A stretch of DNA of 64,000 nucleotides, from positions 1,785,643-1,849,642 of the forward strand of contig OZ244916.1 in the NCBI GenBank assembly GCA_965221835.1, given 5' to 3'. The notes under the pieces were generated by a model. The model ran no database searches, was not told the DNA's origin, and saw nothing but the letters and a program-made list of their open reading frames with translations. The translations under genes and the position numbers were made by a program. This document shows, one piece after another, positions 8,086-50,696 of this stretch; position 1 is the first letter of the stretch, and each line of letters begins with the position of its first letter. The stretch comes from Gammaproteobacteria bacterium (GTDB lineage Bacteria > Pseudomonadota > Gammaproteobacteria > Tethybacterales > Persebacteraceae).

Positions 8086-8286
8086 TCGGCGAATAATCGC
8101 GTTGCGATATTCCCGCCCGTTGCAGTCAAAACGCGAGGCGTACAAACAAAGATATTCCGCGTTTTTGTCCTGCTGCAAATACGAAAACAACTGCCCGCCG
8201 TTGCCCTCCATTTTTTAGTTTCGTTGTCGCATTCCGCGCCCCAAGTTTTGCATTCAATATGCGCGAAAACATTTATAATTGCGGCG

Positions 8287-11595: not shown

Positions 11596-11605
11596 AGTTT
11601 GAACA

Positions 11606-35558: not shown

Positions 35559-36041
35559 ATGAACGACAATGATAAGAAATTACTTGCAAATAAGAAATTG
35601 TTTGATGCAATTAAGAAAGGCAAGGAAATAGCCCGAGACGATACCAAAAACAAATTGGATGAATTGAATAAAGAAATCAAGGATCTGATTACTAAAGAAA
35701 ACGCGAGTCCGAATGCGAAAATGGATGACGGTTGGACGGTTTTGATGGAGGCGGCAAATGTCGGAAATCTCGAAATTGCCCAAACTCTGATAAATGCAGG
35801 GGCGAATCCGAATGCGGCGAAGGGCTATGGCTGGACGGCTTTGATGGAGGCGGCATATTACGGACATATGACAATTGTCTCTCTTCTGCTGGAAAAAGTG
35901 GTAAATCGGAATGCGGCATTAAATGCGAATTGGACTGCTTTGGATGCCGCAAATCTGGCGTGGCAAAATGCGAAAACTCCGGAAGAGGCGAAAAAGTTTC
36001 AGACAATTGTGGATATGTTTCAAGGGAAAAAGACGGGATAA
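35559..36041 (+). CDS. ankyrin-repeat protein (no signal peptide)
   Basis: Repeats GWTVLMEAANVGNLEIAQTLINAGANPNA / GYGWTALMEAAYYGH. AAGGAG RBS. Confidence 0.8.
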   Translation: MNDNDKKLLANKKLFDAIKKGKEIARDDTKNKLDELNKEIKDLITKENASPNAKMDDGWTVLMEAANVGNLEIAQTLINAGANPNAAKGYGWTALMEAAYYGHMTIVSLLLEKVVNRNAALNANWTALDAANLAWQNAKTPEEAKKFQTIVDMFQGKKTG

Positions 36042-36044
36042 CAA

Positions 36045-36078
36045 AACCGGCGGGGATTCAATGTCCCCGCTTTTTTTG
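36045..36078 (+). terminator. rho-independent terminator (family hairpin CCGGCGGGGATTCAATGTCCCCGC + T7)
   Basis: GC stem followed by T-run immediately after the ank stop codon. Confidence 0.7.
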
Positions 36079-36111
36079 TATTTCTTTACAAAACCAAAAG
36101 GAAAAATCATT

Positions 36112-36438
36112 ATGAAAATCAAATCTATTATTTTGCCGCTGTTTGCGGTTTTTGTTTTGGGTGTGTCCGGTTGTGCGGACAAATCTGGACCGAAATTACG
36201 CGAAATTGAACGAGTTTCGGAAATGTCGGACGAGGAAATTGCCGCCGCAAGAGAGGCGTGTCATCTTATTTCCACAACCGATTATAACTGTTCAGAATTG
36301 GTAAATCCGATTCACGGAATGACTCCGGACGAATGGAAAATTCTCACCGAATCTACGAAAGAATGTCGCAAAAATCAGTTGCTGTCATTTCATCATTGTC
36401 TGCGAGGAAAAGGCGTACGGTACGCCGAATATAATTAA
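36112..36438 (+). CDS. small lipoprotein (conserved MKIKSIILPLFAVF signal, lipobox LGVSGC)
   Basis: ATG at 36112 with RBS AAAGGAAAAATCATT-ATG. Cys-rich mature part. Confidence 0.65.
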   Translation: MKIKSIILPLFAVFVLGVSGCADKSGPKLREIERVSEMSDEEIAAAREACHLISTTDYNCSELVNPIHGMTPDEWKILTESTKECRKNQLLSFHHCLRGKGVRYAEYN

Positions 36439-36441
36439 GCC

Positions 36442-37551
36442 ATGTTTGCCCGTTATGTTTGGATAATCGCCCCGCTGTTTGCGGCGGGGTGCGGCGGGAT
36501 TAACATTTTGCCGGAACCGTTTACTCGCGAACGGGTGGACGGAAAAATTCCGGTAAAAGTAGAATTGATTCGCAAACAAGTACGGGCGGAGTTGGACGGC
36601 GTTCCAGAAGGCGAAGCGGAAGTTTTGCGATGGCAGGTGATTGAAAAAGATTATAACAAATGCCGTTTGTCATCCGCCCGTGCAACAAAATCGGAAGCGG
36701 AGGAAGTTTTCGCCGTGTGCATGTCCGAACAAGGATATGTTTATATGTTGCCGATTGACGCCGAACAATTTCATTGGGATATTGCGGAAAAAGAGGAGGG
36801 TATTTACGCAGAGGAAAAACGAGTAGCGGAAGAACGCCGAATTGCCGCTGAAAAAGAACTGGAAAAACTCCGAGTTGCCGCCGAAAAAAAAGCGGAAGAG
36901 GAACGAATCGCTGCCGAAAAGAAAGCGGAAGAGGAACGAATTGCTGCCGCTGTAAAAGCGGAACAGGAGCGTTTAGAAAACAATTTGAGAATTTATGCAA
37001 GAGACAATGAATTGTCGGAAGTGCGGCGTTTACTTTCTTTGGGCGTTAATCCTAATGCGGTGAATGATGGCGGTGTGACGGCTTTGATGGGGGCTGCATA
37101 TAATGGACATGCCGAAATTGCGAAAATGCTGTTATCGGCAGGGGCGAATCCGAATGTGGTAAATAAGGACGGCTTGACGGCTTTGATAGTGGCGGGAAAT
37201 AGCGAACATGCCGAAATTGCGAAAATGCTGTTAGACGGCGGTGCGAATCCGAATGCGGCGATTATTAACGGCTGGACGGCTTTGATTTTGGTAGCAAATA
37301 AGGGACATGCCGAAGTTGCGAAAATTTTATTGTCGGCGAGGGCGAATCCGAATGCGGTTGATAATAAAGGTATGACGGCTTTGATGGTAGCAGCATTGAA
37401 AGGACATGCCGAAATTATAAAGATATTGATAGCGGGCGGAGCGGAAGTTAATCAGCGTACGCCCGAAGGAAGTACAGCTTTGAGTTTGGCAAAATATAGG
37501 GGCTTTTCCGAGATTGAACGCATTTTGCGAGCGGCGGGGGCGAAAGAATAA
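36442..37551 (+). CDS. lipoprotein with coiled-coil (AEEERIAAEKKAEEERIAA) and C-terminal ankyrin repeats, ending ERILRAAGAKE
   Basis: Signal/lipobox LFAAGC. 4-5 ANK repeats (TALMGAAYNGHAEIAKMLLSAGANPN...). Confidence 0.8.
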   Translation: MFARYVWIIAPLFAAGCGGINILPEPFTRERVDGKIPVKVELIRKQVRAELDGVPEGEAEVLRWQVIEKDYNKCRLSSARATKSEAEEVFAVCMSEQGYVYMLPIDAEQFHWDIAEKEEGIYAEEKRVAEERRIAAEKELEKLRVAAEKKAEEERIAAEKKAEEERIAAAVKAEQERLENNLRIYARDNELSEVRRLLSLGVNPNAVNDGGVTALMGAAYNGHAEIAKMLLSAGANPNVVNKDGLTALIVAGNSEHAEIAKMLLDGGANPNAAIINGWTALILVANKGHAEVAKILLSARANPNAVDNKGMTALMVAALKGHAEIIKILIAGGAEVNQRTPEGSTALSLAKYRGFSEIERILRAAGAKE

Positions 37552-37588
37552 CGGCGAGGATTCCATTTCCCCGCCGTTTTTTTTTACA
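37552..37588 (+). terminator. rho-independent terminator (family hairpin)
   Basis: acggcgaggattccatttccccgccg + T9. Confidence 0.7.
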
Positions 37589-37609
37589 AAACTAAAATGA
37601 AAAATCATT

Positions 37610-38101
37610 ATGAAAAATGACATAAATAAACAATTGATTAAAGCGTGTATTGACGACAATTTAGAGGAAGTTAATCGTCTAATTGCGGCTGGTGCGAATC
37701 CGAATGTGGTAAATAAGGACGGCTTGACGGCTTTGATATTGGCGGCATTTTATGGATATACCGAAATTGCGAAAGTGTTGTTAGACGGCGGTGCGAATCC
37801 GAATGCGGCGATTATTAACGGCTGGACGGCTTTGATTTTGGCGGCAAATAAGGGACATGCCGAAATTGCGAAAATTCTGTTGTCGGCGGGGGCGAATCCG
37901 AATGGGACGGGTAATGACAACTTGACGGCTTTAATGCGTGCGACAGTGGAAGGATATGCCGAAATTGTAAAGATATTGATAGCTGGTGGAGCGGAAGTTA
38001 ATCAGCGTACGCACGACGGAGTCACGGCTTTGGATCTTGCGAAACATGGGGGCTTTTCCAAGATTGAACGCATTTTGCGGGCGGCGGGGGCGAAAGAATA
38101 G
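37610..38101 (+). CDS. ankyrin-repeat protein, ends ERILRAAGAKE
   Basis: 4 ANK repeats. A degenerate copy of the MKIKSII start lies upstream as a 7-codon ORF (atgaaaaatcattatgaaaaatga). Confidence 0.8.
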   Translation: MKNDINKQLIKACIDDNLEEVNRLIAAGANPNVVNKDGLTALILAAFYGYTEIAKVLLDGGANPNAAIINGWTALILAANKGHAEIAKILLSAGANPNGTGNDNLTALMRATVEGYAEIVKILIAGGAEVNQRTHDGVTALDLAKHGGFSKIERILRAAGAKE

Positions 38102-38136
38102 CGGCGGGGATTCCGTGTCCTCGCCGGTTTTTTTTG
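38102..38136 (+). terminator. rho-independent terminator (family hairpin)
   Basis: cggcggggattccgtgtcctcgccgg + T8. Confidence 0.75.
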
Positions 38137-38185
38137 CGTTTTTACGAATTCGGCGGGATAGGGTTGTTTTCAACCGAAAGAGGAG

Positions 38186-39265
38186 ATGATGGGCGAAAAG
38201 GACAAACAATTTATTAAAGCAATTATAGAATGCGATTTGAATTTGGTCAAGCAACTGATTGATGAAGGTGCGAATCTGAATGCGGTGGATGAATGGAACC
38301 AGCCGGCTTTGTATAATGTGGTAGTACGACGACTTGACGAATTTACGAAAATTCTGATTGCGGCGGGTGCAAATCCAAATGCGGCGAATAAAGACGGCAT
38401 GACGGCTTTGATGTTGGCGGGACAAGAAGGATATACCGAAGTTGCAAAAATGCTGTTGTCGGCGGGGGCGAATCCGAATGCGGCAAATAAATACGGCATG
38501 ACGGCTTTGATGCTTGTGGCATGGAACGGAAATGCCGAAGTTGCCGAGTTGCTGTTATCGGCGGGGGCGGATGTGAATGCGGTGACTGATAAAAGAGATA
38601 GGGCTTTTAATAAAGGCGATACGGCTTTGATGTTTGCGGCAAGGAAAGGACATGAAGTTGCGAAAATACTGTTGTCGGCGGGGGCGAATCCGAATGCGGC
38701 GAATTATGGCGGCTATACGGCTTTGATGCAGGCGGCATCATACAAAAACACCGAAGTTGTAAAAATGCTAATAGCGGCGGGGGCGGATGTGAATGCGGCG
38801 AAGTATGACGGCACAACGGCTTTGAATGGGGCGGCGAATGACGAAATTAGATGCATGTTGCAGGCGGCGGGAGCGAAATTCCGTGTCCCCGCTGTTTTAG
38901 AAAAACAAAAGAATTCCTTTTCTGTTTTTGATTTTATAATGGATATCACTGTTTTTGATATTATCATCACTATCGTCTTATTTGTTATACTTGTTTTACA
39001 AGGTTCAATCGCTTTAATAGTTTTGTCAATTGCGTTGATCTGCTTTCTTGCATTTGCTTTCGTATTTGGTCATGTTTTTTTTCTCGCCGTGGCTTTTGAT
39101 TTTGGAGTTGTCGGCATAATCGCTTATGTTGCCGCATGGATTTTTATGGCTCCCATAATGATAATTTTAGGAGCTGTCGCAGGGGTTATATCTTTTATAG
39201 GGGTTCTTCTAGGATTTCTACCTTTTTTCGAAAAATGGCGGAACTTTGGCGACAAAAATGCGTAA
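38186..39265 (+). CDS. ankyrin-repeat protein with C-terminal ~4-TM membrane domain
   Basis: 6 ANK repeats, then ...LQAAGAKFRVPAVLEKQ... reads through into a hydrophobic 130-aa tail (IITIVLFVILVLQGSIALIVLSIALICFLAFAFVFGHVFFLAVAF...). Confidence 0.75.
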   Translation: MMGEKDKQFIKAIIECDLNLVKQLIDEGANLNAVDEWNQPALYNVVVRRLDEFTKILIAAGANPNAANKDGMTALMLAGQEGYTEVAKMLLSAGANPNAANKYGMTALMLVAWNGNAEVAELLLSAGADVNAVTDKRDRAFNKGDTALMFAARKGHEVAKILLSAGANPNAANYGGYTALMQAASYKNTEVVKMLIAAGADVNAAKYDGTTALNGAANDEIRCMLQAAGAKFRVPAVLEKQKNSFSVFDFIMDITVFDIIITIVLFVILVLQGSIALIVLSIALICFLAFAFVFGHVFFLAVAFDFGVVGIIAYVAAWIFMAPIMIILGAVAGVISFIGVLLGFLPFFEKWRNFGDKNA

Positions 39266-39430
39266 ATTTTTTTTGATTTTCCGCGTGTTTGCGGCATTTT
39301 GATTATCTACCAAATGATTCCGTATATCTACAAAATGCACACCGAAGGGGATATTTAATGGCATAATTGCGAGGCGGGGAAAAGGATTTTCGCCGCATTT
39401 TTTAATCATTATCAAAAAACAAGGAGAAAA

Positions 39431-39940
39431 ATGATGAAGAGTGATTACAAGAAATTGTCCAAAGCCCTGAAAGATGGAAAAGTGGATGACTTTAAGAATT
39501 TGCTTAAAGAGGGCGCAAATCCGAATGCGCCTGATCACCGGCATGAATCGATTCTGCATTTGGCGGTGCGCAAAGGCAATGCCGAAAATTCCGAAATAAC
39601 CGTTGATTATCTGTTAAACAAAGCGGTTAATAAGGCGAATCCGAATACGGCAACGCCGGACGGATGGACGGCTTTGATGGAAGCGGCGCATGTCGGAAAA
39701 TGCAATGTTGCCAAAATTTTGTTAGAAGCGGGGGCGAATCCAAATGCGGCGAAGGGCTACGGTTGGACGGCTTTAATGTCGGCGGCATTTGAGGGACATG
39801 ACAAAGTTGTAGATATTCTGTTGAAACGGGGGGCGAATCCGAATGCCGCATTAAACGCAGATTGGACGGCTTTGTTTTCCGCATATGAAGCCGGACATTC
39901 CAAAGTCGTCAAAATTTTGGAAAAGAAGGCGAAAAAATAA
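39431..39940 (+). CDS. ankyrin-repeat protein (no signal peptide)
   Basis: GWTALMEAAHVGKCNVAKILLEAGANPNAAKGYGWTALMSAAFEGH. AAGGAG RBS. Confidence 0.8.
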   Translation: MMKSDYKKLSKALKDGKVDDFKNLLKEGANPNAPDHRHESILHLAVRKGNAENSEITVDYLLNKAVNKANPNTATPDGWTALMEAAHVGKCNVAKILLEAGANPNAAKGYGWTALMSAAFEGHDKVVDILLKRGANPNAALNADWTALFSAYEAGHSKVVKILEKKAKK

Positions 39941-39944
39941 CAAA

Positions 39945-39980
39945 AATCGGCGGGGATTCCATGTTCCGCCGTTTTATTTA
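39945..39980 (+). terminator. rho-independent terminator (family hairpin)
   Basis: tcggcggggattccatgttccgccg + T-rich. Confidence 0.65.
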
Positions 39981-40003
39981 CAAAACCGAAAGGAAAAATT
40001 ATT

Positions 40004-41008
40004 ATGAAAATCAAATCTATTATTTTGCCGCTGTTTGCGGTTTTTGCGTTGATAGTTTCGCCGTCTGCTTTTACCGATGAAGGCGATGAAGTCCATCAAG
40101 GGCTTTTTGCCAATCCGTTGACGCACGCCTCTGTGCACGGCAATTTGGCGGAAGTTAAGCGGTTGCTTGCGGCGGATGCAAATCCGAATGAGGCGAATGA
40201 TTACGGTACTACGGCTTTAATGTGGGCGACAAGCAAAGGACATGCCGAAGTTGCCGAGTTGCTATTGTCGGCAGGGGCTAATCCGAATGCGGCGAATATT
40301 TACGGCTTTACGGCTTTGCATGATGCAAAATGGGGACATGCCGAAGTTGTCGAGGTTTTGTTGGCGGCGGGGGCGAATCCGAATGCGGAGAATAATGTCG
40401 GCGAGACGGCTTTGATAGTTGTTGTAAGAGAAGGATATACCGAAATGGTAAAAATGATGTTGGCGGCGGGGGCGAATCCGAATGCGGCAACTAATAACGG
40501 CAGGACGGCTTTGATGGGGGCGGCATGGAAAGGACATGCTGAAATTGCCGAGATGTTATTATCGGCAGGGGCGAATCCGAATGCGGCAACTAATAACGGC
40601 AGGACGGCTTTGATGGGGGCGGCAAGGAACGGACATGCCGAAGTTGCGAAAATGCTGTTGTCGGCGGGGGTAGATGTTAATGCGGCGATTGATGAAGGTA
40701 CAACGGCTTTGATGCTGACTGCATGGAAAGGACATGCTGAAATTGCCGAGATGTTATTATCGGCAGGGGCGAATCCGAAGGTGACGGATAAATCGGGCAA
40801 AACGGCTTTGATGTGGGCGGTAAGAAGAGGAAATGCCGAAGTTACCGAGATATTGTTGGAAGAGGATACGTATTTGTATGCAACAGATAAGGAAGGCAAA
40901 AACGTTTTGGATTATGCAAACGAAGAATGGTCGGAAGCGAAAACGCAAGAAGAAGCATTGGAGTATAAGCGGATTGTAGAAATGTTGCGGGCGGCGGGGG
41001 CGAAATAA
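40004..41008 (+). CDS. secreted ankyrin-repeat protein (signal peptide MKIKSIILPLFAVFALIVSPSAF), ends MLRAAGAK
   Basis: 8 ANK repeats including two near-identical units (NNGRTALMGAAWKGHAEIAEMLLSAGANPNAAT x2). Confidence 0.8.
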   Translation: MKIKSIILPLFAVFALIVSPSAFTDEGDEVHQGLFANPLTHASVHGNLAEVKRLLAADANPNEANDYGTTALMWATSKGHAEVAELLLSAGANPNAANIYGFTALHDAKWGHAEVVEVLLAAGANPNAENNVGETALIVVVREGYTEMVKMMLAAGANPNAATNNGRTALMGAAWKGHAEIAEMLLSAGANPNAATNNGRTALMGAARNGHAEVAKMLLSAGVDVNAAIDEGTTALMLTAWKGHAEIAEMLLSAGANPKVTDKSGKTALMWAVRRGNAEVTEILLEEDTYLYATDKEGKNVLDYANEEWSEAKTQEEALEYKRIVEMLRAAGAK

Positions 41009-41012
41009 CAAA

Positions 41013-41048
41013 AACCGGCGGGGATTTCGTGTCTCCGCCGTTTTTTTA
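41013..41048 (+). terminator. rho-independent terminator (family hairpin)
   Basis: ccggcggggatttcgtgtctccgccg + T7. Confidence 0.75.
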
Positions 41049-41067
41049 ATAATCAAAAAGGATAACA

Positions 41068-41289
41068 ATGAATAAAATTCTGAAATTCATCCTTTCGCCG
41101 GTTATTATTCCGACTGCTTTTGCGAAATCGGCGAAAAACAGCAAGGTGATGCGGGTGTTGCTATATCTATACTTGCTTGTTTTCGTTTTGACTACTCCGT
41201 ATGCATGGCTTTTCGGGCTTATTCCATTATTTATTCATTTGTTATTCTTTCTGCATAAAGTAATGATGAAGGTCATTAACGAAGAATGA
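41068..41289 (+). CDS. small hydrophobic membrane protein (73 aa, 2 TM)
   Basis: ORF followed by a family terminator hairpin at 41293-41327. Confidence 0.45.
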   Translation: MNKILKFILSPVIIPTAFAKSAKNSKVMRVLLYLYLLVFVLTTPYAWLFGLIPLFIHLLFFLHKVMMKVINEE

Positions 41290-41292
41290 CAA

Positions 41293-41327
41293 AACCGGCG
41301 GGGATTTCGAATCCTCGCCGTTTTTTA
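41293..41327 (+). terminator. rho-independent terminator (family hairpin)
   Basis: ccggcggggatttcgaatcctcgccg + T6. Confidence 0.7.
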
Positions 41328-41350
41328 CAAAACCAAAAGGAAAAATCATT

Positions 41351-41416
41351 ATGAAAATCAAATCTATTATTTTGTCGCTGTTTGCCGCCGTGTTTGCGGC
41401 GGGGTGTGGGCGGTGA
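41351..41416 (+). pseudogene. frameshifted lipoprotein signal-peptide segment (MKIKSIILSLFAAVFAAGCGR-stop) upstream of, and out of frame with, the next ankyrin gene
   Basis: Conserved family start plus lipobox AAGC terminates after 21 codons. The ANK ORF continues in another frame from 41404/41416. Confidence 0.55.
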
Positions 41417-42597
41417 TGGCGTCTTTTGTAGGTAAAATTTTACATTCTATGGTGGGGAATGGATTAACACCATTCGCTCAACTAATGCTTTGGCTGGGTA
41501 CGAATCCGAATGCGGCAGTGGATGACGGATTTACGGCTTTGATGTCGGCGGCATTTGACGGAAATGCCAAAATTGCCAAGTTGCTGTTGACAGCAGGGGC
41601 GAATCCGAATGCGGTGACTAATGACGGCAGGACGGCTTTAATGGCGGCGGCAATCAAAGGACATGCCGAAGTTGCGAAAGTGTTGTTAGACGGCAAGGCG
41701 AATCAGAATGCGGCGGCTAATAAAAGCGTGACGGCTTTGATGGTGGCGGCAGGGGAAGGACATACCGAGGTTGCGAAAGTGTTGTTAGACGGCGGGGCGA
41801 ATCTGAATGCAGCGAATGATGACGGCTATACGGCTTTGATGTTGGCGGCAGTGGAAGGACATGCCGAAGTTGCGAAAGTTCTGATTGCGGCGGGGGCGAA
41901 TCCGAATGCGGCGAATGATAGTGGCAATACGGCTTTGCATTTGGTGGCAGTTAAAGGGCATGCTGAAGTTGCGAAAATACTGTTAGCGGCGGGGGCGAAT
42001 CCGAATGCGGCGAGAGATGGCGGCTGGACGGCTTTAATGTTTGCGGCAATTGACGGACATGCCGAAGTTGCGAAAGTATTGTTAGACGGCGGGGCAAATC
42101 CGAATGCGGCGGGTAATAACGGCGAAACAGCTTTGGGAGGGGCGGCAAAAATAGGACATGCCGAAGTTGCTAAAATTCTATTATCGGCGGGGGCGAATCC
42201 GAATGCAGTGGACAACGACAGCTGGACGGCTTTGAGGTGGGCAGCATATAAGGGACATACCGAAGTTGCGAAAATTCTGTTATCGGCGAGGGCGAATCCG
42301 AATGCGGCGAATGATTACGGCGATACGGCTTTGATACTTGCATCAATATCAGGACATTCCGAAGTTGCGAAAATTCTGATTGCGGCGAAGGCGAATCCGA
42401 ATGCGACGGATAATAACGGCAGGACGGCTTTGATTCAGGCAGTAGATAAAGGACATGCCGAAATTGTAAAGATATTGATAGCGAGTGGAGCGGAAGTTAA
42501 TCAGCGTACGTCCAAAGAATTCACAGCTTTGGGTATAGCGAAAGCACTCGGCTTTTCCAAGATTGAACGCATTTTGCGGGCGGCGGGGGCGAAGTAG
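41416..42597 (+). CDS. ankyrin-repeat protein (11 repeats), ends ERILRAAGAK; signal peptide disrupted by frameshift
   Basis: ORF track start 41404 is GTG. First ATG is 41416. Repeats TALMxAAxxGHAEVAKVLLDGGANPNAA throughout. Confidence 0.75.
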   Translation: MASFVGKILHSMVGNGLTPFAQLMLWLGTNPNAAVDDGFTALMSAAFDGNAKIAKLLLTAGANPNAVTNDGRTALMAAAIKGHAEVAKVLLDGKANQNAAANKSVTALMVAAGEGHTEVAKVLLDGGANLNAANDDGYTALMLAAVEGHAEVAKVLIAAGANPNAANDSGNTALHLVAVKGHAEVAKILLAAGANPNAARDGGWTALMFAAIDGHAEVAKVLLDGGANPNAAGNNGETALGGAAKIGHAEVAKILLSAGANPNAVDNDSWTALRWAAYKGHTEVAKILLSARANPNAANDYGDTALILASISGHSEVAKILIAAKANPNATDNNGRTALIQAVDKGHAEIVKILIASGAEVNQRTSKEFTALGIAKALGFSKIERILRAAGAK

Positions 42598-42680
42598 CAT
42601 AATCTAACTTTGGCGGCGGTCGCTTTGTTTCATCGGCGGGCGATTGCTTTTTATTCATTCTATCCGAAAGGAGAATTACG

Positions 42681-43364
42681 ATGAACGAAAACGACACAAA
42701 TTTATTTAATGCGATTAAACTCAACAAAGATCCGGAAGAGGTCAAGCGTCTGATTAAGGCGGGGGCGAATCCGAATGCCGTGGATGATGACGAATTGACG
42801 GCTTTGATGTGGGTGGCGTGGGGCGGAGGAGGCAAAGAAGAGAAAGTAAGATTGCCCGACAATACTCGGAATTGCGTAGGGCGTATCGGTTGGACTATTT
42901 TGCCCGCAGATCCCAGAAAAGAAGATGCCGAAATAGCCGAAGTATTGTTATCGGAGAAAGCGGAGCCCAATGCGGCAAGAAGTGATGGCATCACAGCATT
43001 GATGATGGCAGCGTATAACGGACATGCCGAAGTTGTCAAGATGTTGTTGTCGGCGGGGGCGAATGTGGATGCGGCGAATGATGACGGCGTGACGGCTTTG
43101 ATGGCGGCGGCACAAGAAGGGTATACCGAAGTTGTCAAAATTTTGATTGCGGCGGGTGCAAATCTAAATGCGGCGGATAAAGACGGCTGGACGACTTTGA
43201 TGTTTGCGGCACAAAAAGGGCATACCGAAGTTGCTGAAATTCTGTTGTCGGTGGAGGCGAATCCGAATACGGAAAATAAATACGGCAGGACGGCTTTGGA
43301 TATTGCGGAAGAAGAGGGGCATGACGAATTCATCCGCATTTTGGAAGAGGCGGGGGCGGAATAA
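42681..43364 (+). CDS. ankyrin-repeat protein (no signal peptide)
   Basis: GITALMMAAYNGHAEVVKMLLSAGANVDAANDDGVTALMAAAQEGYTEVVKILIAAGANLNA. AAGGAG RBS. Confidence 0.8.
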   Translation: MNENDTNLFNAIKLNKDPEEVKRLIKAGANPNAVDDDELTALMWVAWGGGGKEEKVRLPDNTRNCVGRIGWTILPADPRKEDAEIAEVLLSEKAEPNAARSDGITALMMAAYNGHAEVVKMLLSAGANVDAANDDGVTALMAAAQEGYTEVVKILIAAGANLNAADKDGWTTLMFAAQKGHTEVAEILLSVEANPNTENKYGRTALDIAEEEGHDEFIRILEEAGAE

Positions 43365-43368
43365 CAAA

Positions 43369-43404
43369 AACCGGCGGGGATTTCGTGTCCTCGCCGGTTT
43401 TTTG
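43369..43404 (+). terminator. rho-independent terminator (family hairpin)
   Basis: ccggcggggatttcgtgtcctcgccgg + T6. Confidence 0.75.
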
Positions 43405-43709
43405 CGGGGATTTGGGGGTTTTGTTCTGAATTCGCAATTTGCTCTTGATATTTGTCGGGCGGGGCGGTTGGGGATTTGGGGGGATTTTCGCGTTCGCGAG
43501 AATGGAATTGGGGTTGCCGAAAAATGTTTATGCGTTGCGGGCGTTTTTGCGTCCGAATTGGCGGATTTTTCGCGCAAATAAAGCGTTTTTTTCCGATTCC
43601 GGCGGGGCAAATCGTGCGGGCGGCGATTATCCGGCGGCGGCATTTTTCTTAAAACGGAGTCGGCGGACGGACGGGCGTGCATTAAACAGGCGATTCGTAT
43701 TAAAATTGA

Positions 43710-43766
43710 AAAATGACAATGCTAAATAACATTCTTTCCATTTTGATTTGGTTTCCGATTGCGGGC
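43710..43766. repeat. 57-bp direct repeat: duplicated 5' end of nuoM (second copy 46076-46132 is the real gene start)
   Basis: aaaaatgacaatgctaaataacattctttccattttgatttggtttccgattgcggg is identical at both positions. Brackets the RM1 insertion. Confidence 0.85.
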
Positions 43767-43807
43767 GTCCGAAACGGCGGGGGCGTTAAATCAGTTGCGG
43801 GGACGAG

Positions 43808-45187
43808 ATGAAAATTGACATTGAAAAATTGAAACGCGAGTTGTATGAAATGGATGCCTTGCGCAAAAAAGATGATGTGCAGTGCGACACGGCGGGGCGT
43901 ATTGAGCCGCAATATTTTGACGGCGATTTGTCGGAGTTGGGATTGTCGCCGAAAGTCGCCGAGGCGATGCGCAAAGAGTTGGGCGACAAAAAATTGTATC
44001 AACATCAGGCGGATGCGATTCGGGCATCAATGCGGGGCGACAATGTCGTTTTGGAATCCCCGACCGCAAGCGGCAAAACGCTATCATTCACCGCCCCGAT
44101 GCTGGAAAGCGTTTGCGGCGGCGGCGGCTGGCGAATTATTTGCGGCGAATGTATTTCCGTCTTAAAACAATTGCCGGACAAATCCGCCAATTTAATTTTC
44201 GCCGACCCGCCGTACAATTTGCAATTAAAAAACGAGTTATACCGCCCGAACATGACTCGCGTGGACGGCGTTTCCGATTCGTGGGACAAGTTTGCATCTT
44301 TTGCGGAATATGATATTTTTTGCGATTCGTGGTTGCGCGAATGTCGCCGCGTTTTGGCGGATGACGGCGCGATTTGGGTAATCGGTACTTATCACAACAT
44401 CGGGCGTTTGTCGCGTCTTATGCAGGATTTGGGTTTTTGGATGCAAAACGATGTGATTTGGCACAAGACGAATCCGATGCCGAATTTTCGCGGCGTGCGG
44501 TTTACGAATGCAACTGAAACTTTATTGTGGGCGAAAAAATCGGAAAAATCACGCGCGGTTTTCAATCACAAAAAAATGAAAGCGGAAAACGGCGGCAAAC
44601 AAATGACGAATGTTTGGCGTTTTCCGATTTGCGGCGGGGCGGAGCGTTTGCGCGATGCGGCGGGAAAGAAATTGCATTCAACACAAAAACCGGAATCGCT
44701 TTTGCGGCGAATCATTCTCGCAACAAGCCGCCCGGGCGATGTCGTATTGGATCCTTTTTCCGGCAGCGGCACGACGGTCGCGGTCGCGCGTTCTTTGCAA
44801 AGAATCGGAATCGGCATAGAACGCGAAAAAAAATATATCACAATTTCGGCAAAACGAATCGCCGCAATTGTACCGGAGGAAATTCCCGCCGAAGATTCCG
44901 CCCCCGCCCCTCGCCGCGTACCGTTTTCGGAATTGATTGCGCGCGGATTAATTAAACCCGGCGAAACTTTGTATTCAAGCAACGGCAAATCACGCGCGCA
45001 AGTTTTGCAAAACGGCGACATTAAAATTAATGGCGCGATTAACGCCGAAGGTTCCATCCACAAAATCGGCGCGAAAGCCGCGGGGACTCCGTCTTGCAAC
45101 GGCTGGAATTTTTGGTACGCGAAAACTGACGGCGGCAAAGTGTTGCTGAACGATTTGCGCGAACGGGCGCGAAAAACGGAGGCGTAA
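43808..45187 (+). CDS. beta-class DNA methyltransferase (DPPY...FSGSGTT order) carrying an in-frame N-terminal ~98-aa fragment of a DEAD/DEAH-box helicase; probable MTase start at ATG 44101
   Basis: Residues 60-98 LYQHQADAIRASMRGDNVVLESPTASGKTLSF = helicase Q-motif plus Walker A. From MLESV onward it is a typical ~360-aa MTase: IICGECISVLKQLP, LIFADPPYNL, LDPFSGSGTT. Confidence 0.8.
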   Translation: MKIDIEKLKRELYEMDALRKKDDVQCDTAGRIEPQYFDGDLSELGLSPKVAEAMRKELGDKKLYQHQADAIRASMRGDNVVLESPTASGKTLSFTAPMLESVCGGGGWRIICGECISVLKQLPDKSANLIFADPPYNLQLKNELYRPNMTRVDGVSDSWDKFASFAEYDIFCDSWLRECRRVLADDGAIWVIGTYHNIGRLSRLMQDLGFWMQNDVIWHKTNPMPNFRGVRFTNATETLLWAKKSEKSRAVFNHKKMKAENGGKQMTNVWRFPICGGAERLRDAAGKKLHSTQKPESLLRRIILATSRPGDVVLDPFSGSGTTVAVARSLQRIGIGIEREKKYITISAKRIAAIVPEEIPAEDSAPAPRRVPFSELIARGLIKPGETLYSSNGKSRAQVLQNGDIKINGAINAEGSIHKIGAKAAGTPSCNGWNFWYAKTDGGKVLLNDLRERARKTEA

Positions 45188-45190
45188 TTT

Positions 45191-46084
45191 ATGAATTATG
45201 ATCAATTTTCCCGCCTTATTAACCGTACTGTTTTCTCCGATTCCAAGGTGAAACTGTTGCGGAGCATCGCTCGTCAACCGGAGAATTTTGTCGGACTTTT
45301 CCGACCGACGACGCCGGAGGTGAAAATTGCCCAAAATTTATCTCAATCTCATGAGATTAAGTTCGGCTACGCATTTGAGGAATTGGTGCGCCTGTATCTC
45401 AAAGAAAACGGATGTCAAATATTTGATTCTTCTATTGTCATTGATGGCAAAAGAAAAGATTTGGATATTTATTTTCGCAAGGATGGTAAGGATTATCTCG
45501 TGGAGCAAAAGACGCGGGATAACCACGACTCCACGAAAAAGCTCGGGCAAGCCGATGACTTTGAGAAAAAATTGGTAGCGGTGTCCGATGGCGGAAAAAA
45601 AGCGGTGTGCGGCGTTCTATTCTTTTTAGACCCCGGTATGTCCAAAAACAAAATATTCTATGAAGAGCGTCTGCCCGAGATTACACAGCGACACGGACTC
45701 GAGACGCGCCTCGTATATGGCGGGGAATTTTTTAATATGTTGTCGTTGGATGTTTGGGATGAGATTGAAAAGTATCTCATTCGGTGGCGCGCGGAATTGC
45801 CGGGATTCCCGGAATTTAACTATGACCGAAATCCGGAGGAAAGTTTTAACGAAATCAAAGACATGAGTCCCGCTGATTTTTGTAAAATTTTCACGCACGA
45901 AGAAATAGGCAAACACATTCTGCCGATTCTCTTTCCGGAGCAAAAAACGCTTAAAATGTTGGTTGACTATTGGGCGTGCAAACCCGAAGGCGTTCGGGCG
46001 CGCAAATCTGACGGCGTTCGCATTTCCCGGTTAATAAATGAACGAATTTCGGAGATGTTGCGGGCGGCGGGGACGAAAAAATGA
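45191..46084 (+). CDS. putative type II restriction endonuclease (PD-(D/E)xK)
   Basis: D-x13-EQK pattern (KDLDIYFRKDGKDYLVEQKTRD). Position immediately 3' of the MTase. C-terminal codons share ttgcgggcggcgggg-cgaaa with the ank gene 3' ends. Stop overlaps nuoM ATG (ATGA). Confidence 0.55.
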   Translation: MNYDQFSRLINRTVFSDSKVKLLRSIARQPENFVGLFRPTTPEVKIAQNLSQSHEIKFGYAFEELVRLYLKENGCQIFDSSIVIDGKRKDLDIYFRKDGKDYLVEQKTRDNHDSTKKLGQADDFEKKLVAVSDGGKKAVCGVLFFLDPGMSKNKIFYEERLPEITQRHGLETRLVYGGEFFNMLSLDVWDEIEKYLIRWRAELPGFPEFNYDRNPEESFNEIKDMSPADFCKIFTHEEIGKHILPILFPEQKTLKMLVDYWACKPEGVRARKSDGVRISRLINERISEMLRAAGTKK

Positions 46085-47565
46085 CAATGCTAAATAACAT
46101 TCTTTCCATTTTGATTTGGTTTCCGATTGCGGGGGGGGTGGTGGTGTTGGTTTGCGGGGCGGCGGGGGTTTGTCCGTACCGAATTAAGGCGGGCGGGATT
46201 GCGGTATCGGGTGCGGCGTTTTTGATTTCGTTGCCGCTGTTTTTTATGTTTGATAGCGGCACGGCGGCGATGCAATTTGTTGAAGATGCTGCGTGGATAG
46301 ACCGGTTTAATATCCGCTACGGGTTGGGCGTGGACGGCTTTTCAATGCTGATGATTTTGCTGAATACTTTTACGACCGTGCTTGTTTTGGCGGCGTGCTG
46401 GCAATCGGTGCAGACGCGGGTTGCAGGTTATGTGGCGGCATTTTTGATGATGTCGGGGCTGACAAACGGCGTTTTTGCGGCGACCGATGCGGCGTTGTTT
46501 TATGTTTTTTGGGAGGCGACTCTCATTCCGCTGTTTATTGTCATCGGCGTTTGGGGCGGCGAACGGCGCGTTTATGCGGCGATTAAATTCTTTTTGTATA
46601 CGCTTGTCGGTTCGTTGCTGATGCTGATTGCGCTTTTGTATTTATACAACGAAACCGGCGATTTTTCTATCGCATCTTTTCACGATGTGCCGATTTCCAT
46701 GACTGCACAAACATTTTTATTTTTCGCATTTTTGGCGGCGTTTGCGGTAAAAGTGCCGATGACGCCTGTGCATACTTGGTTGCCGGATGCGCATGTGGAG
46801 GCGCCGACAGGCGGTTCTATTGTGCTGGCGGCGGTGATGTTAAAACTCGGCGCGTACGGATTTTTGCGTTTTTCGTTGCCGGTCGCCCCCGATGCGAGTG
46901 TGGAATTCGCGTGGCTGATTATCGCGTTGTCTTTGGCGGCGATTGTTTATATCGGCTTGGTTGCGCTGGTGCAAGATGATATGAAAAAACTCATCGCCTA
47001 TTCGTCGGTTGCGCACATGGGATTTGTAACGCTTGGATTTTTTCTGTTTGACGAACTCGGAATGAAAGGCGGAATCGCGCAAATGGTGTCGCACGGTTTT
47101 GTATCGGGCGCGATGTTTTTCGGCGTGGGCGTGGTATATGACCGGATGCATACGCGCAAAATTGCGGACTACGGCGGCATTGCAAACACGATGCCGAAAT
47201 ATGCGGCGTTTATGATGTTGTTTGCGATGGCGAATGCGGGATTGCCCGGCACGAGCGGATTTGTCGGCGAGTTTATGGTGATTTTGGCGGCGGTGCGCAC
47301 CGATTTATGGATAGGATTGTTGTGCGCAACGACTTTAATTACCGGCGCGGCGTATACTTTGTGGATGTACAAACGCGTCTTTTTCGGCGAAATCGCAAAC
47401 GATGCGGTGCGCGAAATGCGCGATGCAACACCGCGCGAAATATTAATAATGTCGCTTTTCGCCGCGCTGATAATGCTGATGGGATTGTGGCCGTTTCCAT
47501 TTCTGGAAACGCTGGACGCAACAACCGCGAATCTACTCGCCCATGTGCGGGAGGGGAAGTTGTGA
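46081..47565 (+). CDS. nuoM: NADH-quinone oxidoreductase subunit M
   Basis: 14-TM antiporter-like subunit. MTMLNNILSILIWFPIAGG..., WLPDAHVEAPTGGS. Confidence 0.92.
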   Translation: MTMLNNILSILIWFPIAGGVVVLVCGAAGVCPYRIKAGGIAVSGAAFLISLPLFFMFDSGTAAMQFVEDAAWIDRFNIRYGLGVDGFSMLMILLNTFTTVLVLAACWQSVQTRVAGYVAAFLMMSGLTNGVFAATDAALFYVFWEATLIPLFIVIGVWGGERRVYAAIKFFLYTLVGSLLMLIALLYLYNETGDFSIASFHDVPISMTAQTFLFFAFLAAFAVKVPMTPVHTWLPDAHVEAPTGGSIVLAAVMLKLGAYGFLRFSLPVAPDASVEFAWLIIALSLAAIVYIGLVALVQDDMKKLIAYSSVAHMGFVTLGFFLFDELGMKGGIAQMVSHGFVSGAMFFGVGVVYDRMHTRKIADYGGIANTMPKYAAFMMLFAMANAGLPGTSGFVGEFMVILAAVRTDLWIGLLCATTLITGAAYTLWMYKRVFFGEIANDAVREMRDATPREILIMSLFAALIMLMGLWPFPFLETLDATTANLLAHVREGKL

Positions 47566-48551
47566 ACAACGCGACCGCCGTTTCCTTTTTTAATGATTCG
47601 CGGAATGCGGCGGCGTTCGCGCCGTCCGACAACAAGCGGGCGGACGGGCGATATTACACGCGCGGCGATCCGTTTTCGCATGCGGCGTTTTGCGAATGGG
47701 CGCGCGTTGCCGGACTGCCGCAAGCGAAAGTTTTGGAACCGTTTGCCGGCGCGAACAATTTAATTAAGACGTTGCGCGCTGCCGGTTTGTGCGAAACATT
47801 CGCGGCGTTTGATATTTTGCCCGGCGACAAATCTGTCAAACGGCGCGATACGCTGGCGGATTTTCCGCGCGGCTTTAATGTCTGCATTACAAATCCGCCG
47901 TGGCTGGCGCGCAACTCTGCGACCCGCCGCGGATTGCCGTATCCGCAAACTCGCTACGACGATTTGTACAAACATTGTCTCGCCGAGTGTCTCGCGCATT
48001 GCGGTTATGTTGCCGCGTTGGTGCCGGAATCGTTTATTCGCGGCGGTTTGTTTACGCCGCGCCTTTCGGCGTTTGTTTCGCTGAACAACGGCATGTTCGC
48101 CGATACCGAACATCCGGTCGGACTCGCGCTTTTTGTCCCGCGCGCGCTCAATACTATTTTATATTGCGGCGCGACAAAAATCGGCGAGTTGCGGCGGTTG
48201 CGCGAATATTGCCCGCCCGCATCCCGCGATGGCGGCGGCGTTTCGTTCAATTCGCCGGACGGCAATTTGGGATTGATTGCGTTGGATAATAATTTTTGCG
48301 CGAGCATTCGTTTTTGCGAAGCGGCGGAGTTGGACGGTTACGAAGTGCGACAAAGTTGCCGCGCGATTACCAAAATTCGCGTTCCCGGACGCCCGCAAAT
48401 CGGCGCGTATAATCGTTTTATCAATTCCTTTCGCAAAAACACGATGGATGTTTTTTTAACGGCATATCGCGGTTTGCGCAAAGACGGATTTTACCGCCGC
48501 CGTTTGGATTACGCGCTAGCGCGGGATATTATTTCTTATGTCGGATTCTAA
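47562..48551 (+). CDS. gamma-class N6-adenine DNA methyltransferase (FxGxG then NPPW)
   Basis: Motif I VLEPFAGANN, motif IV VCITNPPWLA. GTG start overlapping the nuoM stop (GTGA). ORF track start 47307 overlaps nuoM and is rejected. Confidence 0.75.
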   Translation: MNNATAVSFFNDSRNAAAFAPSDNKRADGRYYTRGDPFSHAAFCEWARVAGLPQAKVLEPFAGANNLIKTLRAAGLCETFAAFDILPGDKSVKRRDTLADFPRGFNVCITNPPWLARNSATRRGLPYPQTRYDDLYKHCLAECLAHCGYVAALVPESFIRGGLFTPRLSAFVSLNNGMFADTEHPVGLALFVPRALNTILYCGATKIGELRRLREYCPPASRDGGGVSFNSPDGNLGLIALDNNFCASIRFCEAAELDGYEVRQSCRAITKIRVPGRPQIGAYNRFINSFRKNTMDVFLTAYRGLRKDGFYRRRLDYALARDIISYVGF

Positions 48552-49242
48552 AATGCCGCCGCCGGATTGGGAGGGAGAAGCGATGCGCAAAATGTGGCGC
48601 AAAAACGCCGCTGCTGTGCCGTCCGAAGTTGAGACAGGCGACAGCGGGATGATGAAAAAAATCGCGACTTATTGCGATAACTTCGGTTATGCTGCGCGGG
48701 AAGTTATTGCCAAAATTTCCGGCGATAAAATGTTTGCCGCGCACTTTGCCAAAAATCCTGGTACTCAAGGAATTCACGAACAAATCGCTGCCGATTATTT
48801 ACAAAAAATTTCCCTGGTCGGAAATTTTGAGATTTTGCCGAGAAGCGGAAAGGATGCGCTGTTTATCAATGCGCGAGGCGAATTGTTAAAGCGCAAAGAC
48901 AAATCGCAAACGAGTGCGCAAGATTCTAAATCGCTGGATTTTTGTTGGAAAACCGGCGGATTTGTCTGCTACGCGAGTCACAAGTATACGAAAGAATCGG
49001 GCGGGGCGCAAGACCATCAATTTCGCGATCAAAAACGGTTTCTGGAAAATTTTCGCGAACATAATAATCCGCGGGCGGCGTGTTTTGCGATTTGCGATGG
49101 CGCATTTTACACCGAAGAAAAAATGCAGGAGTTGGAAAGTGTGACGCGCAAAAAACCGCCGATAAGTTTCGCCGTACATATTGAAGATGTCGCCGAAAAT
49201 TTGCAAAAACTTGCGGCATTAAAGGATAATTCGCTACAATGA
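48538..49242 (+). CDS. hypothetical protein, candidate restriction endonuclease partner of the preceding MTase
   Basis: Overlaps MTase 3' end by 14 nt. No clear catalytic motif (possible D-x12-SHK). Assignment by context only. Confidence 0.4.
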   Translation: MSDSKMPPPDWEGEAMRKMWRKNAAAVPSEVETGDSGMMKKIATYCDNFGYAAREVIAKISGDKMFAAHFAKNPGTQGIHEQIAADYLQKISLVGNFEILPRSGKDALFINARGELLKRKDKSQTSAQDSKSLDFCWKTGGFVCYASHKYTKESGGAQDHQFRDQKRFLENFREHNNPRAACFAICDGAFYTEEKMQELESVTRKKPPISFAVHIEDVAENLQKLAALKDNSLQ

Positions 49243-50696
49243 CCGCCGCTGAGTTGATGATTTCCGCTGCGAGTGTGGAGATATTTTTGTTTGTTGCCGG
49301 GTGCGCGGTGTTGTGCGCGGATTTGTTTTTGCCCGATTCGTATCGCGCGCGGTTGCATTGGGCGGTGATTGCCGCATTGTTGGTTGCAGCCGCCGCCGTT
49401 GCGGGATCGGTTGCGGATGCGCCGATTGCGGCGTTGCACGGATTTTTTGTTTCCGACCCGCTGGCGGCAATTCTCAAAACAACCGCATTGTTGGCGGTCG
49501 CCGGGTCGCTGGCATTTTCGCGCGGTTATTTGCAGTCGGCGGGAATGTTGCGCGGCGAATTTCATGCGCTGGCTTTGTTTGCTGCTTTGGGAATGGCGGT
49601 GATGATTTCGGCGGGGCATTTTCTTTCGCTGTATCTCGGATTGGAATTGATGTCGCTGTCGTTGTATGCGATGATTGCGATGCGGCGCGAAAGTGCGCAT
49701 GCGGTGGAAGCGGCGATTAAATATTTCGTGTTGGGCGCGTTGGCGTCGGGTTTATTTTTGTATGGCGTATCGGTAATTTACGGCGCGACCGGCGGAAAAT
49801 TGTACATTGCCGAAGTCGCAGAAGCCGCGGCGGCGGGCGGCGAATCGTCCATGGCGCTTTCGCTCGGATTGGTGTTTGCGTTGGCGGGTTTGGCATTCAA
49901 ACTCGGCGCCGCGCCGTTTCACATGTGGCTGCCGGATGTTTACGAAGGTGCGCCTGCGCCGATGACTTTGTTTGCGGCGGCGGCGCCGAAAGTTGCGGCG
50001 ATGGCGATGATGTTGCGCGTGTTGACGGATGCGTTGCCGGCGTTGCATGGCGAATGGCGCGATATGCTGATTGTGTTGGGGCTGGCGTCTTTGGCGGTGG
50101 GCAACATTACCGCTATCGCGCAAACCGATATTAAACGAATGCTGGCTTATTCGGCGATTGCGCACAGCGGATTTATGGTGTTGGGCGTGTTGGCGGGCGA
50201 TGCGGACGGCGTGGCGGCGGCGGTGTTTTATGTTGCCGCGTACGCGCTGATGACGGTCGGCGGATTCGGCGTGGTGGTTTTGCTGGCGCCGGACGGACGC
50301 GAAAATGGCGCGCTGGAATCGTTAAAAGGAATGTCGTCTCGCAACATTCTCGTCGCCGGCGTACTCGCTGCGCTGATGTTGTCTATGGCGGGCGTGCCGC
50401 CGGTTGTGGGATTTGTCGCCAAACTGACGATTTTGCAGGCGGTGGCGGATGCGGGATTGGTGTGGCTGGCGGTGGCGGCGGTCGTATTTTCGGCAATCGG
50501 CGCGTTTTATTATTTGCGCGTCATCAAATTGATGTTTTTTGATCCGCCGCCGGATGGTGCTGCCGCTGTGCGTTTGTCGCCGGCGGGGGGTGCGATGGTT
50601 GCGTTGGTCGGATTTTTGATTTTGATATTGGGAATATTTCCCGGTGCGCTTTTGTCGGCATGCGAAGCGGCGGCAAAAATCGCGCTAACAACATGA
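49239..50696 (+). CDS. nuoN: NADH-quinone oxidoreductase subunit N
   Basis: 14-TM. LYLGLELMSLSLYAMIAMRRES...KLGAAPFHMWLPDVYEGAPAP. Confidence 0.92.
   Translation: MTAAELMISAASVEIFLFVAGCAVLCADLFLPDSYRARLHWAVIAALLVAAAAVAGSVADAPIAALHGFFVSDPLAAILKTTALLAVAGSLAFSRGYLQSAGMLRGEFHALALFAALGMAVMISAGHFLSLYLGLELMSLSLYAMIAMRRESAHAVEAAIKYFVLGALASGLFLYGVSVIYGATGGKLYIAEVAEAAAAGGESSMALSLGLVFALAGLAFKLGAAPFHMWLPDVYEGAPAPMTLFAAAAPKVAAMAMMLRVLTDALPALHGEWRDMLIVLGLASLAVGNITAIAQTDIKRMLAYSAIAHSGFMVLGVLAGDADGVAAAVFYVAAYALMTVGGFGVVVLLAPDGRENGALESLKGMSSRNILVAGVLAALMLSMAGVPPVVGFVAKLTILQAVADAGLVWLAVAAVVFSAIGAFYYLRVIKLMFFDPPPDGAAAVRLSPAGGAMVALVGFLILILGIFPGALLSACEAAAKIALTT

Follow-up and report, generated by a model that had tools for sequence, protein, structure and literature searches.

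A candidate restriction-modification gene pair spliced between nuoM and nuoN in a Persebacteraceae-like bacterium

We examined a stretch of 64,000 nucleotides from contig OZ244916.1 of a Persebacteraceae genome (the whole of this stretch is referred to as the window), and in it two open reading frames (ORFs) that lie between nuoM and nuoN, one for a predicted DNA methylase and the other for a candidate nuclease. An earlier reading of the same DNA, the original prediction, had proposed that they form a restriction-modification (RM) pair. The genes and the overlaps that join them are the following, with protein lengths in amino acids (aa):

46081..47565, forward strand: nuoM, the upstream flank (494 aa; PF00361, E=2.9e-81).
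47562..47565, forward strand: GTGA overlap of the methylase start with the nuoM stop, read from the sequence (GTGA or ATGA in relatives).
47562..48551, forward strand: predicted gamma-class N6-adenine DNA methyltransferase (329 aa), from its motifs, predicted fold and homologue family.
48538..48551, forward strand: 14-nt overlap of the methylase 3′ end with the nuclease 5′ end (ATG…TAA), read from the sequence and kept in clade relatives.
48538..49242, forward strand: candidate restriction endonuclease of PD-(D/E)xK fold (234 aa), from its AlphaFold2 fold, conserved motifs and a sub-threshold match to PF06300.
49239..50696, forward strand: nuoN, the downstream flank (485 aa, homologues 482-488 aa; PF00361, E=2.8e-67).

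The order is nuoM, GTGA, methylase, 14-nt overlap, nuclease, ATGA and nuoN, after which comes a NUDIX gene. The final codons of nuoM, …GGGAAGTTGTGA, provide both a purine-rich, Shine-Dalgarno-like stretch and the GTG that serves as the start of the methylase. The nuoM TGA occupies positions 47563-47565, the methylase is read in a frame different from that of nuoM, and GTG 47562 is its sole in-frame start beyond that point. Both the GTG start overlapping the nuoM stop and the 14-nt overlap had been described correctly in the original prediction, but the stop of the 234-aa ORF, said to lie 3 nt before nuoN, in fact belongs to a 4-nt ATGA overlap in which the nuclease TGA (49240-49242) runs into the nuoN ATG (49239-49241). 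The nuclease start at ATG 48538 (or ATG 48553) is backed by a conserved PPDW/PPDY motif at aa 8-11, which argues against ATG 48583, the start given by a gene caller for a 219-aa product on a near-identical contig. Neither gene is a chance ORF: each family has more than 1000 members, and the ratio of nonsynonymous to synonymous divergence (dN/dS) against clade relatives is 0.13-0.23.

The methylase carries a GxYYT motif (GRYYT, at about aa 29-33), EPFAGAN (motif I, aa 59-65) and NPPW (motif IV, aa 111-114), followed by a conserved C-terminal target-recognition domain (about 180-329), and this order of motifs X, I and IV ahead of a C-terminal domain, together with an M.TaqI-like structure, is that of the gamma class. 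In an alignment of 41 homologues G29 and T33 of GxYYT, E59-P60-x-A62-G63 and N111-P112-P113-W114 are invariant, and the C-terminal half is strongly conserved (SIRFC, RxITK and YRRR). The AlphaFold2 model, with a mean local confidence score (pLDDT) of 85 overall and below 50 for residues 1-32, has M.TaqI as its best Foldseek match (E=5e-9, template modelling (TM) score 0.43-0.53, over both domains), and next come Type I HsdM, PacII, M.BseCI and BpuSI, all of them N6-adenine DNA methylases. Since motif order and predicted fold agree, the assignment to the gamma class of N6-adenine (N6A) DNA methyltransferases that was originally made from EPFAGAN and NPPW is supported.

Though the family is large (more than 1305 homologues, many of them about 55% identical), to judge by sequence searches it lies outside every existing curated family model. 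No Pfam match at E<=0.01 and no NCBIfam match at E<=0.1 was found for the methylase (cut-offs of PF02384, PF07669 and PF01555 included), a sequence search against the PDB gave no relative, PADLOC returned weak MTase_II matches (E=0.0037), and a PF07669 mark was carried by one of 120 homologues among the matches listed. The likeness to TaqI-type Type IIP systems consists in the single-chain methylase, the X-I-IV order, the C-terminal target-recognition domain, the small separate endonuclease partner and the correspondence of NPPW to an NPPY-type catalytic motif, with M.TaqI as the closest structure; in contrast, the methylase is 12-14% identical to M.TaqI and matches none of the Pfam families N6_Mtase, Eco57I and TaqI_C. 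Its N-terminal extension of roughly 20 residues (1 to about 24) is predicted to be disordered, is specific to the clade and not present in the wider family, and reaches the nuoM stop, as would be expected if a 5′ leader of the cassette had been recruited for that purpose.

The 234-aa partner had been described as having no clear nuclease motif and as a possible novel restriction-enzyme fold or other kind of effector. Its family, however, has an invariant D134...H148-K149 core, and 17 of 41 relatives match the Tsp45I family of Pfam (PF06300) at E<=0.01, the best at E=5e-6. The complete set of invariant columns is K131, L133, D134, F135, W137, A146, H148, K149, T151, G155, G156 and Q158, with H80, E81 and D159 nearly invariant and a GGxQD motif present, and all family-invariant residues are found in the window protein. 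In a confident AlphaFold2 model (pLDDT 94, predicted TM score (pTM) 0.87) D134 stands at the start of a strand (135-139) and S147-H148-K149 on the next (142-151), and the top Foldseek matches in the PDB are all PD-(D/E)xK nucleases: VC1899/Can2/Card1, MGME1, McrC, FokI, BspD6I, RecU, MspJI and EcoRI. The model thus supports a PD-(D/E)xK fold, not a new one. A novel restriction-enzyme fold or a non-nuclease would be in keeping with the lack of sequence matches to solved structures and of above-threshold Pfam matches, but is hardly credible for a protein whose model matches PD-(D/E)xK nucleases exclusively and whose invariant D…xHK core lies on the expected strands.

In the PDB no relative of the nuclease was found by sequence, and no Pfam or NCBIfam model was reached at its cut-off. 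Against PF06300 it scores 21 bits (cut-off 25; E=2.7e-4), with residues 124-216 aligned to positions 165-254 of the 260 in the profile, and by sequence it is a distant, sub-threshold relative of the Tsp45I family and not a member by the curated criterion. That family has been placed in the PD-(D/E)xK superfamily (PMC3424549). The C-terminal catalytic half is what aligns, and the predicted fold class is identical, whereas the N-terminal half is unaligned and the score stays below the cut-off. Tsp45I recognises GTSAC, a sequence that is not clearly avoided in the window (27 observed and 39 expected, a ratio of 0.69), which gives no reason to assume a shared specificity. With a word-indexed search 79 relatives of the nuclease were found, and with an exhaustive profile search 1195 clusters at 50% identity with E<=1e-3 (302 with E<=1e-30); the family is large and diverges faster than that of the methylase.

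The two families are linked whichever of them is taken as anchor. When considering the nuclease, 29 of 30 species-representative genomes have the methylase directly adjacent (28 upstream and one downstream), and when considering the methylase, the adjoining nuclease family is present on 52 of the 67 metagenome contigs with at least 500 nt downstream, nearly always directly downstream. Genomes with the linked pair come from Chloroflexota, Poribacteria, Bacteroidota/Rhodothermales, Gamma- and Alphaproteobacteria, Saccharibacteria, Nitrospinota, Endomicrobium and Thaumarchaeota, many being metagenome-assembled genomes from sponges, and in other phyla the pair is also seen in contexts other than nuo. 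Across carriers the methylase is about 50-57% identical, compared to 32-45% for the nuclease, and the two ORFs typically abut or overlap. In a tblastn search against plasmids a single methylase homologue was found, on a Magnetospirillum plasmid and annotated only as an S-adenosylmethionine-dependent methyltransferase, and the same search with the nuclease gave no match.

Linkage, a methylase better conserved than its nuclease and abutting ORFs are together what is usually seen in mobile Type II RM cassettes, and we therefore regard it as quite probable that the two genes form an intact Type II-like RM pair, consisting of an M.TaqI-like N6A methylase and a candidate PD-(D/E)xK nuclease. The adjacency, the overlaps and the cross-phylum linkage also uphold the original prediction of an RM-type pair wedged between nuoM and nuoN. 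We infer the enzymatic activities of both proteins: the methylase would mark a target sequence, and the nuclease would cleave that sequence in its unmethylated state.

The 234-aa protein might instead be a methylase-coupled nuclease of another kind, acting in nicking, repair or abortive infection and not as a classical Type IIP enzyme. Among its best structural matches are PD-(D/E)xK nucleases with no role in restriction (Can2/Card1, MGME1 and RecU), the Tsp45I match is not only sub-threshold but limited to the C-terminal 90 or so residues, and the N-terminal 90 or so form an all-helical domain in the AlphaFold2 model to which no function is assigned. We consider this very unlikely, as the size, the overlapping gene order, the better-conserved methylase and the patchy spread across phyla are all standard for Type II RM, there is no sign of a sensor, an extra domain or a third conserved gene, and the sole PADLOC match of the protein is a Type II restriction endonuclease model (REase_II, weak at E=1.2e-3).

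Several observations weigh against an intact, working RM pair. No curated family model in Pfam or NCBIfam is matched above threshold by either protein, and the global TM-scores of the nuclease model to solved nucleases are low (0.2-0.4). Ser147 occupies the canonical (D/E) position, so that catalysis would depend on another acidic residue; judging from the sequence this must be supplied from elsewhere, with E81, E152 or D159 as the candidates, and enzymes of the Cfr10I type are a precedent for such an arrangement. Motif avoidance in the window, in the clade and in unrelated carriers gave no consistent candidate for a recognition site. A weak promoter-like site at 49201-49230 could transcribe nuoN independently of the genes upstream. 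Finally, the methylase also occurs as a solitary gene (L005, and about 15 of the 67 metagenome loci), so that it may function without restriction.

The solitary copies, which lie among housekeeping genes, also fit a domesticated remnant, in which the methylase would be a solitary epigenetic or regulatory enzyme like CcrM or Dam, and the 234-aa protein would be inactive or repurposed, its frame kept open by polarity on nuoN. In the relative L003 the nuclease has decayed to 32 codons next to an intact methylase, and the neighbouring CcrM-like methylase occurs in every clade genome with a nuclease partner that is variable or lost. Against this, dN/dS for the nuclease (0.13-0.21) is as low as for the methylase, which indicates selection on the amino acids and not merely on an open frame, the window nuclease retains every family-invariant residue, and the linkage of the two families is strong in both directions. 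We thus find a remnant improbable, and an intact RM pair remains our preferred reading.

The pair is not a constant part of the nuo gene set. NuoN is 71% identical to that of 'Candidatus Persebacteraceae bacterium Df01', which together with the ankyrin-repeat and RM-like genes of the window is in keeping with a sponge symbiont of Tethybacterales type. The gene order in the clade is nuoJ, an ORF of 116-151 aa, nuoK, nuoL, a CcrM-like methylase with a RAMA domain (always present), a HinfI/HpyAIV-type nuclease, remnant or helicase, nuoM, a variable slot, nuoN and NUDIX. The nuoM/nuoN slot is empty in L126, with a 61-nt spacer, it holds an Mrr_cat gene in L125, in Df01 (L123-124) and in the TARA locus L119, and it holds the methylase and nuclease in the window, L008, L002, L121 and the metagenome locus L038. 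In L003 the slot is composite, containing the methylase, the 32-codon nuclease remnant, a copy of the nuoM 3′ end, a gene for an N6_N4-methylase with HNH, and an Mrr_cat gene followed by nuoN. The 3′ end of nuoM is duplicated there over 56 nt (5947-6002 and 7003-7058, 89% identical) in such a way that the two copies bracket the methylase and the nuclease remnant, and through the duplication the next gene, the N6_N4 methylase-HNH, regains a stop/start overlap. In all nine clade genomes compared, the nuoM stop is overlapped by (A/G)TGA, and every inserted gene, whether methylase or Mrr, starts at that overlapping codon; the purine-rich stretch before the stop is likewise conserved, as GGGAA(G/A)TT in 8 of the 9.

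On a short contig that belongs to the sample series of L003 (L004, 1036-6967), the methylase and the N6_N4/HNH gene are duplicated in inverted orientation on the two sides of a nuoM 3′ fragment, owing either to rearrangement in a variant strain or to an error of assembly. A third junction, nuoJ/nuoK, is occupied in all clade relatives examined by the ORF of 116-151 aa, which has no Pfam match:

L002, 169-540: nuoJ/nuoK ORF.
L124, 541-891: nuoJ/nuoK ORF.
L125, 658-1008: nuoJ/nuoK ORF.
L126, 705-1160: nuoJ/nuoK ORF.

When a tree is built from nuoM and nuoN, the genome with the empty site is basal. The methylases of the clade are monophyletic, with 66-75% identity among themselves compared to 52-57% to outsiders. 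Pairwise synonymous divergence (dS) of methylase and nuclease is 0.89-1.66, similar to the 0.70-1.44 of nuoM and nuoN, while the methylase has a dN/dS of 0.16-0.23 and the nuo genes one of 0.09-0.17. Because dS of the pair is close to that of the nuo genes and dN/dS is low, the pair has diverged in step with the genes on either side, both proteins being under purifying selection. It was inserted long ago and has been passed on vertically. No target duplication is found around it in the window, L008, L002 or L121, and the idea that the C-terminal tail of the nuclease arose from a decayed duplicate of the 3′ end of nuoM was rejected (no nucleotide similarity). Genomes that carry Mrr and genomes that carry the pair interleave on the nuoM and nuoN tree, which implies either losses or an exchange of alleles through the conserved flanks.

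The original prediction had the pair inside the nuo operon, of which one part stands, as nuoM and nuoN do flank it, but the remainder does not: there is no nuoJ, nuoK or nuoL in the 64 kb of the window, nuoA-L are not adjacent, and upstream of nuoM there are instead another RM pair, 344 nt of non-coding DNA and an array of ankyrin-repeat genes. Compared to shuffled sequence there is no excess of promoter-like sites (4, with 8.7 expected) or of terminator-like sites (25, with 23 expected). As there is also no intergenic space, co-transcription with nuoM and nuoN, and translational coupling, is plausible and the simplest reading.

We propose that the methylase and nuclease form a two-gene unit that would be mobile across many phyla, mainly among sponge-associated microbes, and that would have landed at the nuoM/nuoN junction in a bacterium ancestral to one subclade of the Persebacteraceae-like betaproteobacterial sponge symbionts. 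The pair would since have been inherited with nuoM and nuoN under purifying selection. Expression would most likely be by read-through transcription with nuoM and nuoN, with translation coupled from stop to start through nuoM, methylase, nuclease and nuoN.

A similar picture is known from defence hotspots flanked by core genes (e.g. Oliveira et al. 2017, PMC5635113), where a single core-gene-flanked position likewise receives differing accessory or defence genes. Those hotspots, however, lie in intergenic islands with signals or mobility genes of their own, whereas the position described here is an inter-cistronic junction inside an operon, with a cargo fused to the neighbouring genes at their stop and start codons. 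In the literature searched we found no description of an RM pair in a nuo junction slot; general precedents exist, in RM insertion into operons (PMC2853133) and in core-gene-flanked hotspots.

With this pair comes a methylase-nuclease family that is uncharacterised yet very widespread; it is a cheap target for enzyme discovery, possibly with a new specificity, since both partners lie outside curated models and each family has more than 1000 clusters or homologues. The more interesting part is the setting, in which a respiratory operon junction is reused as a slot for defence genes across a family of symbionts with reduced genomes, the inserted genes are joined to their neighbours by overlapping stop and start codons, and traces of long target duplications can still be seen close by. 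It is a natural case for asking how operons take up selfish or defensive genes and stay intact, and whether coupling to essential genes stabilises such genes. One could go further and see the defence genes in the distal nuo junctions (nuoJ/nuoK, nuoL/nuoM and nuoM/nuoN) as a selected architecture of Persebacteraceae-like sponge symbionts and not a neutral accident, though we think this rather unlikely. If it were true, RM genes would gain constitutive expression without signals of their own through fusion to the codons of essential genes, they would be shielded from loss, as frameshifts or deletions would uncouple nuoN translation, and the nuoM and nuoN flanks would serve as homology arms for swapping Mrr and methylase-nuclease defence alleles among symbionts.

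In terms of recognition sequence, several palindromes are far rarer in the window than expected (observed/expected: GGCC 5/368, TCGA 27/300, ACGT 23/141, GATC 74/271, AGCT 10/37, CCWGG 4/27 and AGNCT 0/37), and the same pattern of avoidance is common to clade relatives (L002, L003, L008 and L119-L126). None of these motifs follows the pair from carrier to carrier. TCGA is strongly avoided in this genome, yet equally so in clade relatives without the pair. AGNCT was considered as target and is lower in clade carriers than in non-carriers, but it is not depleted in other carriers; GGCC is also lower in clade carriers, but contains no adenine. When 28-29 unrelated carriers of the pair were pooled, no motif was consistently depleted. 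We also looked beside solitary methylases for alternative nuclease partners that could inform on specificity, and found housekeeping genes as neighbours. GANTC is not avoided in the window (334/319), despite the GANTC-type RM pair that lies upstream of nuoM.

That first RM pair and the repeat beside it are arranged as follows:

43709..43765, forward strand: upstream copy of a 57-nt direct repeat of the nuoM 5′ end, ATG included (other copy 46077-46133; 100% identity, blastn E=1.6e-24).
43808..45187, forward strand: CcrM-like (GANTC-type) N6_N4 methylase with RAMA and a fused DEAD-helicase fragment at aa 40-107 (PF01555, 1.6e-62; PF18755; PF00270).
45191..46084, forward strand: HpyAIV/HinfI-type restriction enzyme, its stop overlapping the nuoM ATG as ATGA (NCBIfam NF045832, 1.2e-59, above cut-off; PADLOC REase_II, 7e-71).

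The first-pair methylase matches the CcrM model of NCBIfam at 1.3e-144, under its cut-off. The local chain begins with a nuoM′ mini-ORF of 32 codons (43713-43811), opened by the upstream repeat copy, and continues through ATGA to the helicase-fused CcrM-like methylase, a 3-nt gap, the HpyAIV-like nuclease and a further ATGA to nuoM; the TGA of the mini-ORF overlaps the ATG of the next ORF. The helicase fragment makes up about 100 N-terminal residues and keeps its Walker A motif intact; full-length helicases homologous to it stand next to nuoM in L003 and L121, and its fusion to the methylase is a scar of an earlier rearrangement. The two 57-nt copies bracket the first pair plus the helicase fragment, and the repeat resembles a long target duplication of the kind that an inserting RM unit leaves behind.

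Such insertions have been described for RM units flanked by long direct repeats that span start or stop sites and leave the target gene intact (Furuta, Abe and Kobayashi 2010, PMC2853133), and one case in which the insertion went into a structure resembling an operon was described in the same work. The 57-nt repeat of the nuoM start at the first pair and the 56-nt repeat at the L003 methylase unit are like these. In contrast, the second pair, between nuoM and nuoN, has no flanking duplication in the window or in close relatives, and the host operon here is that of respiratory complex I, with a junction that differing defence genes reuse throughout a bacterial family.

In L001 (110-1002), a near-identical contig of 10 kb at 4x coverage, the HpyAIV-like nuclease is split into ORFs of 224 and 73 aa, owing either to a strain-level frameshift or to a read error. 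An 18-nt perfect inverted match joins non-coding DNA upstream of the first pair (43629-43646) to the first codons of the second-pair nuclease (48550-48567; blastn E=0.002), and may be chance in GC-rich sequence. Further upstream, nine ankyrin-repeat ORFs (35559-43364) stand at the place taken by nuoL in relatives, and the sequences between them are related (for instance, 43349-43403 and 40993-41047 are 93% identical). An Rfam scan of the window gave no RNA genes and hence no 16S rRNA on which to base taxonomy, which was taken from the similarity of NuoN. Several other RM-like genes are present in the window, and at 8224-15193 there is a defence-like module in which a PLD-nuclease with SNF2/helicase (1123 aa) adjoins an Eco57I-type N6A methylase with TaqI_C (1195 aa).

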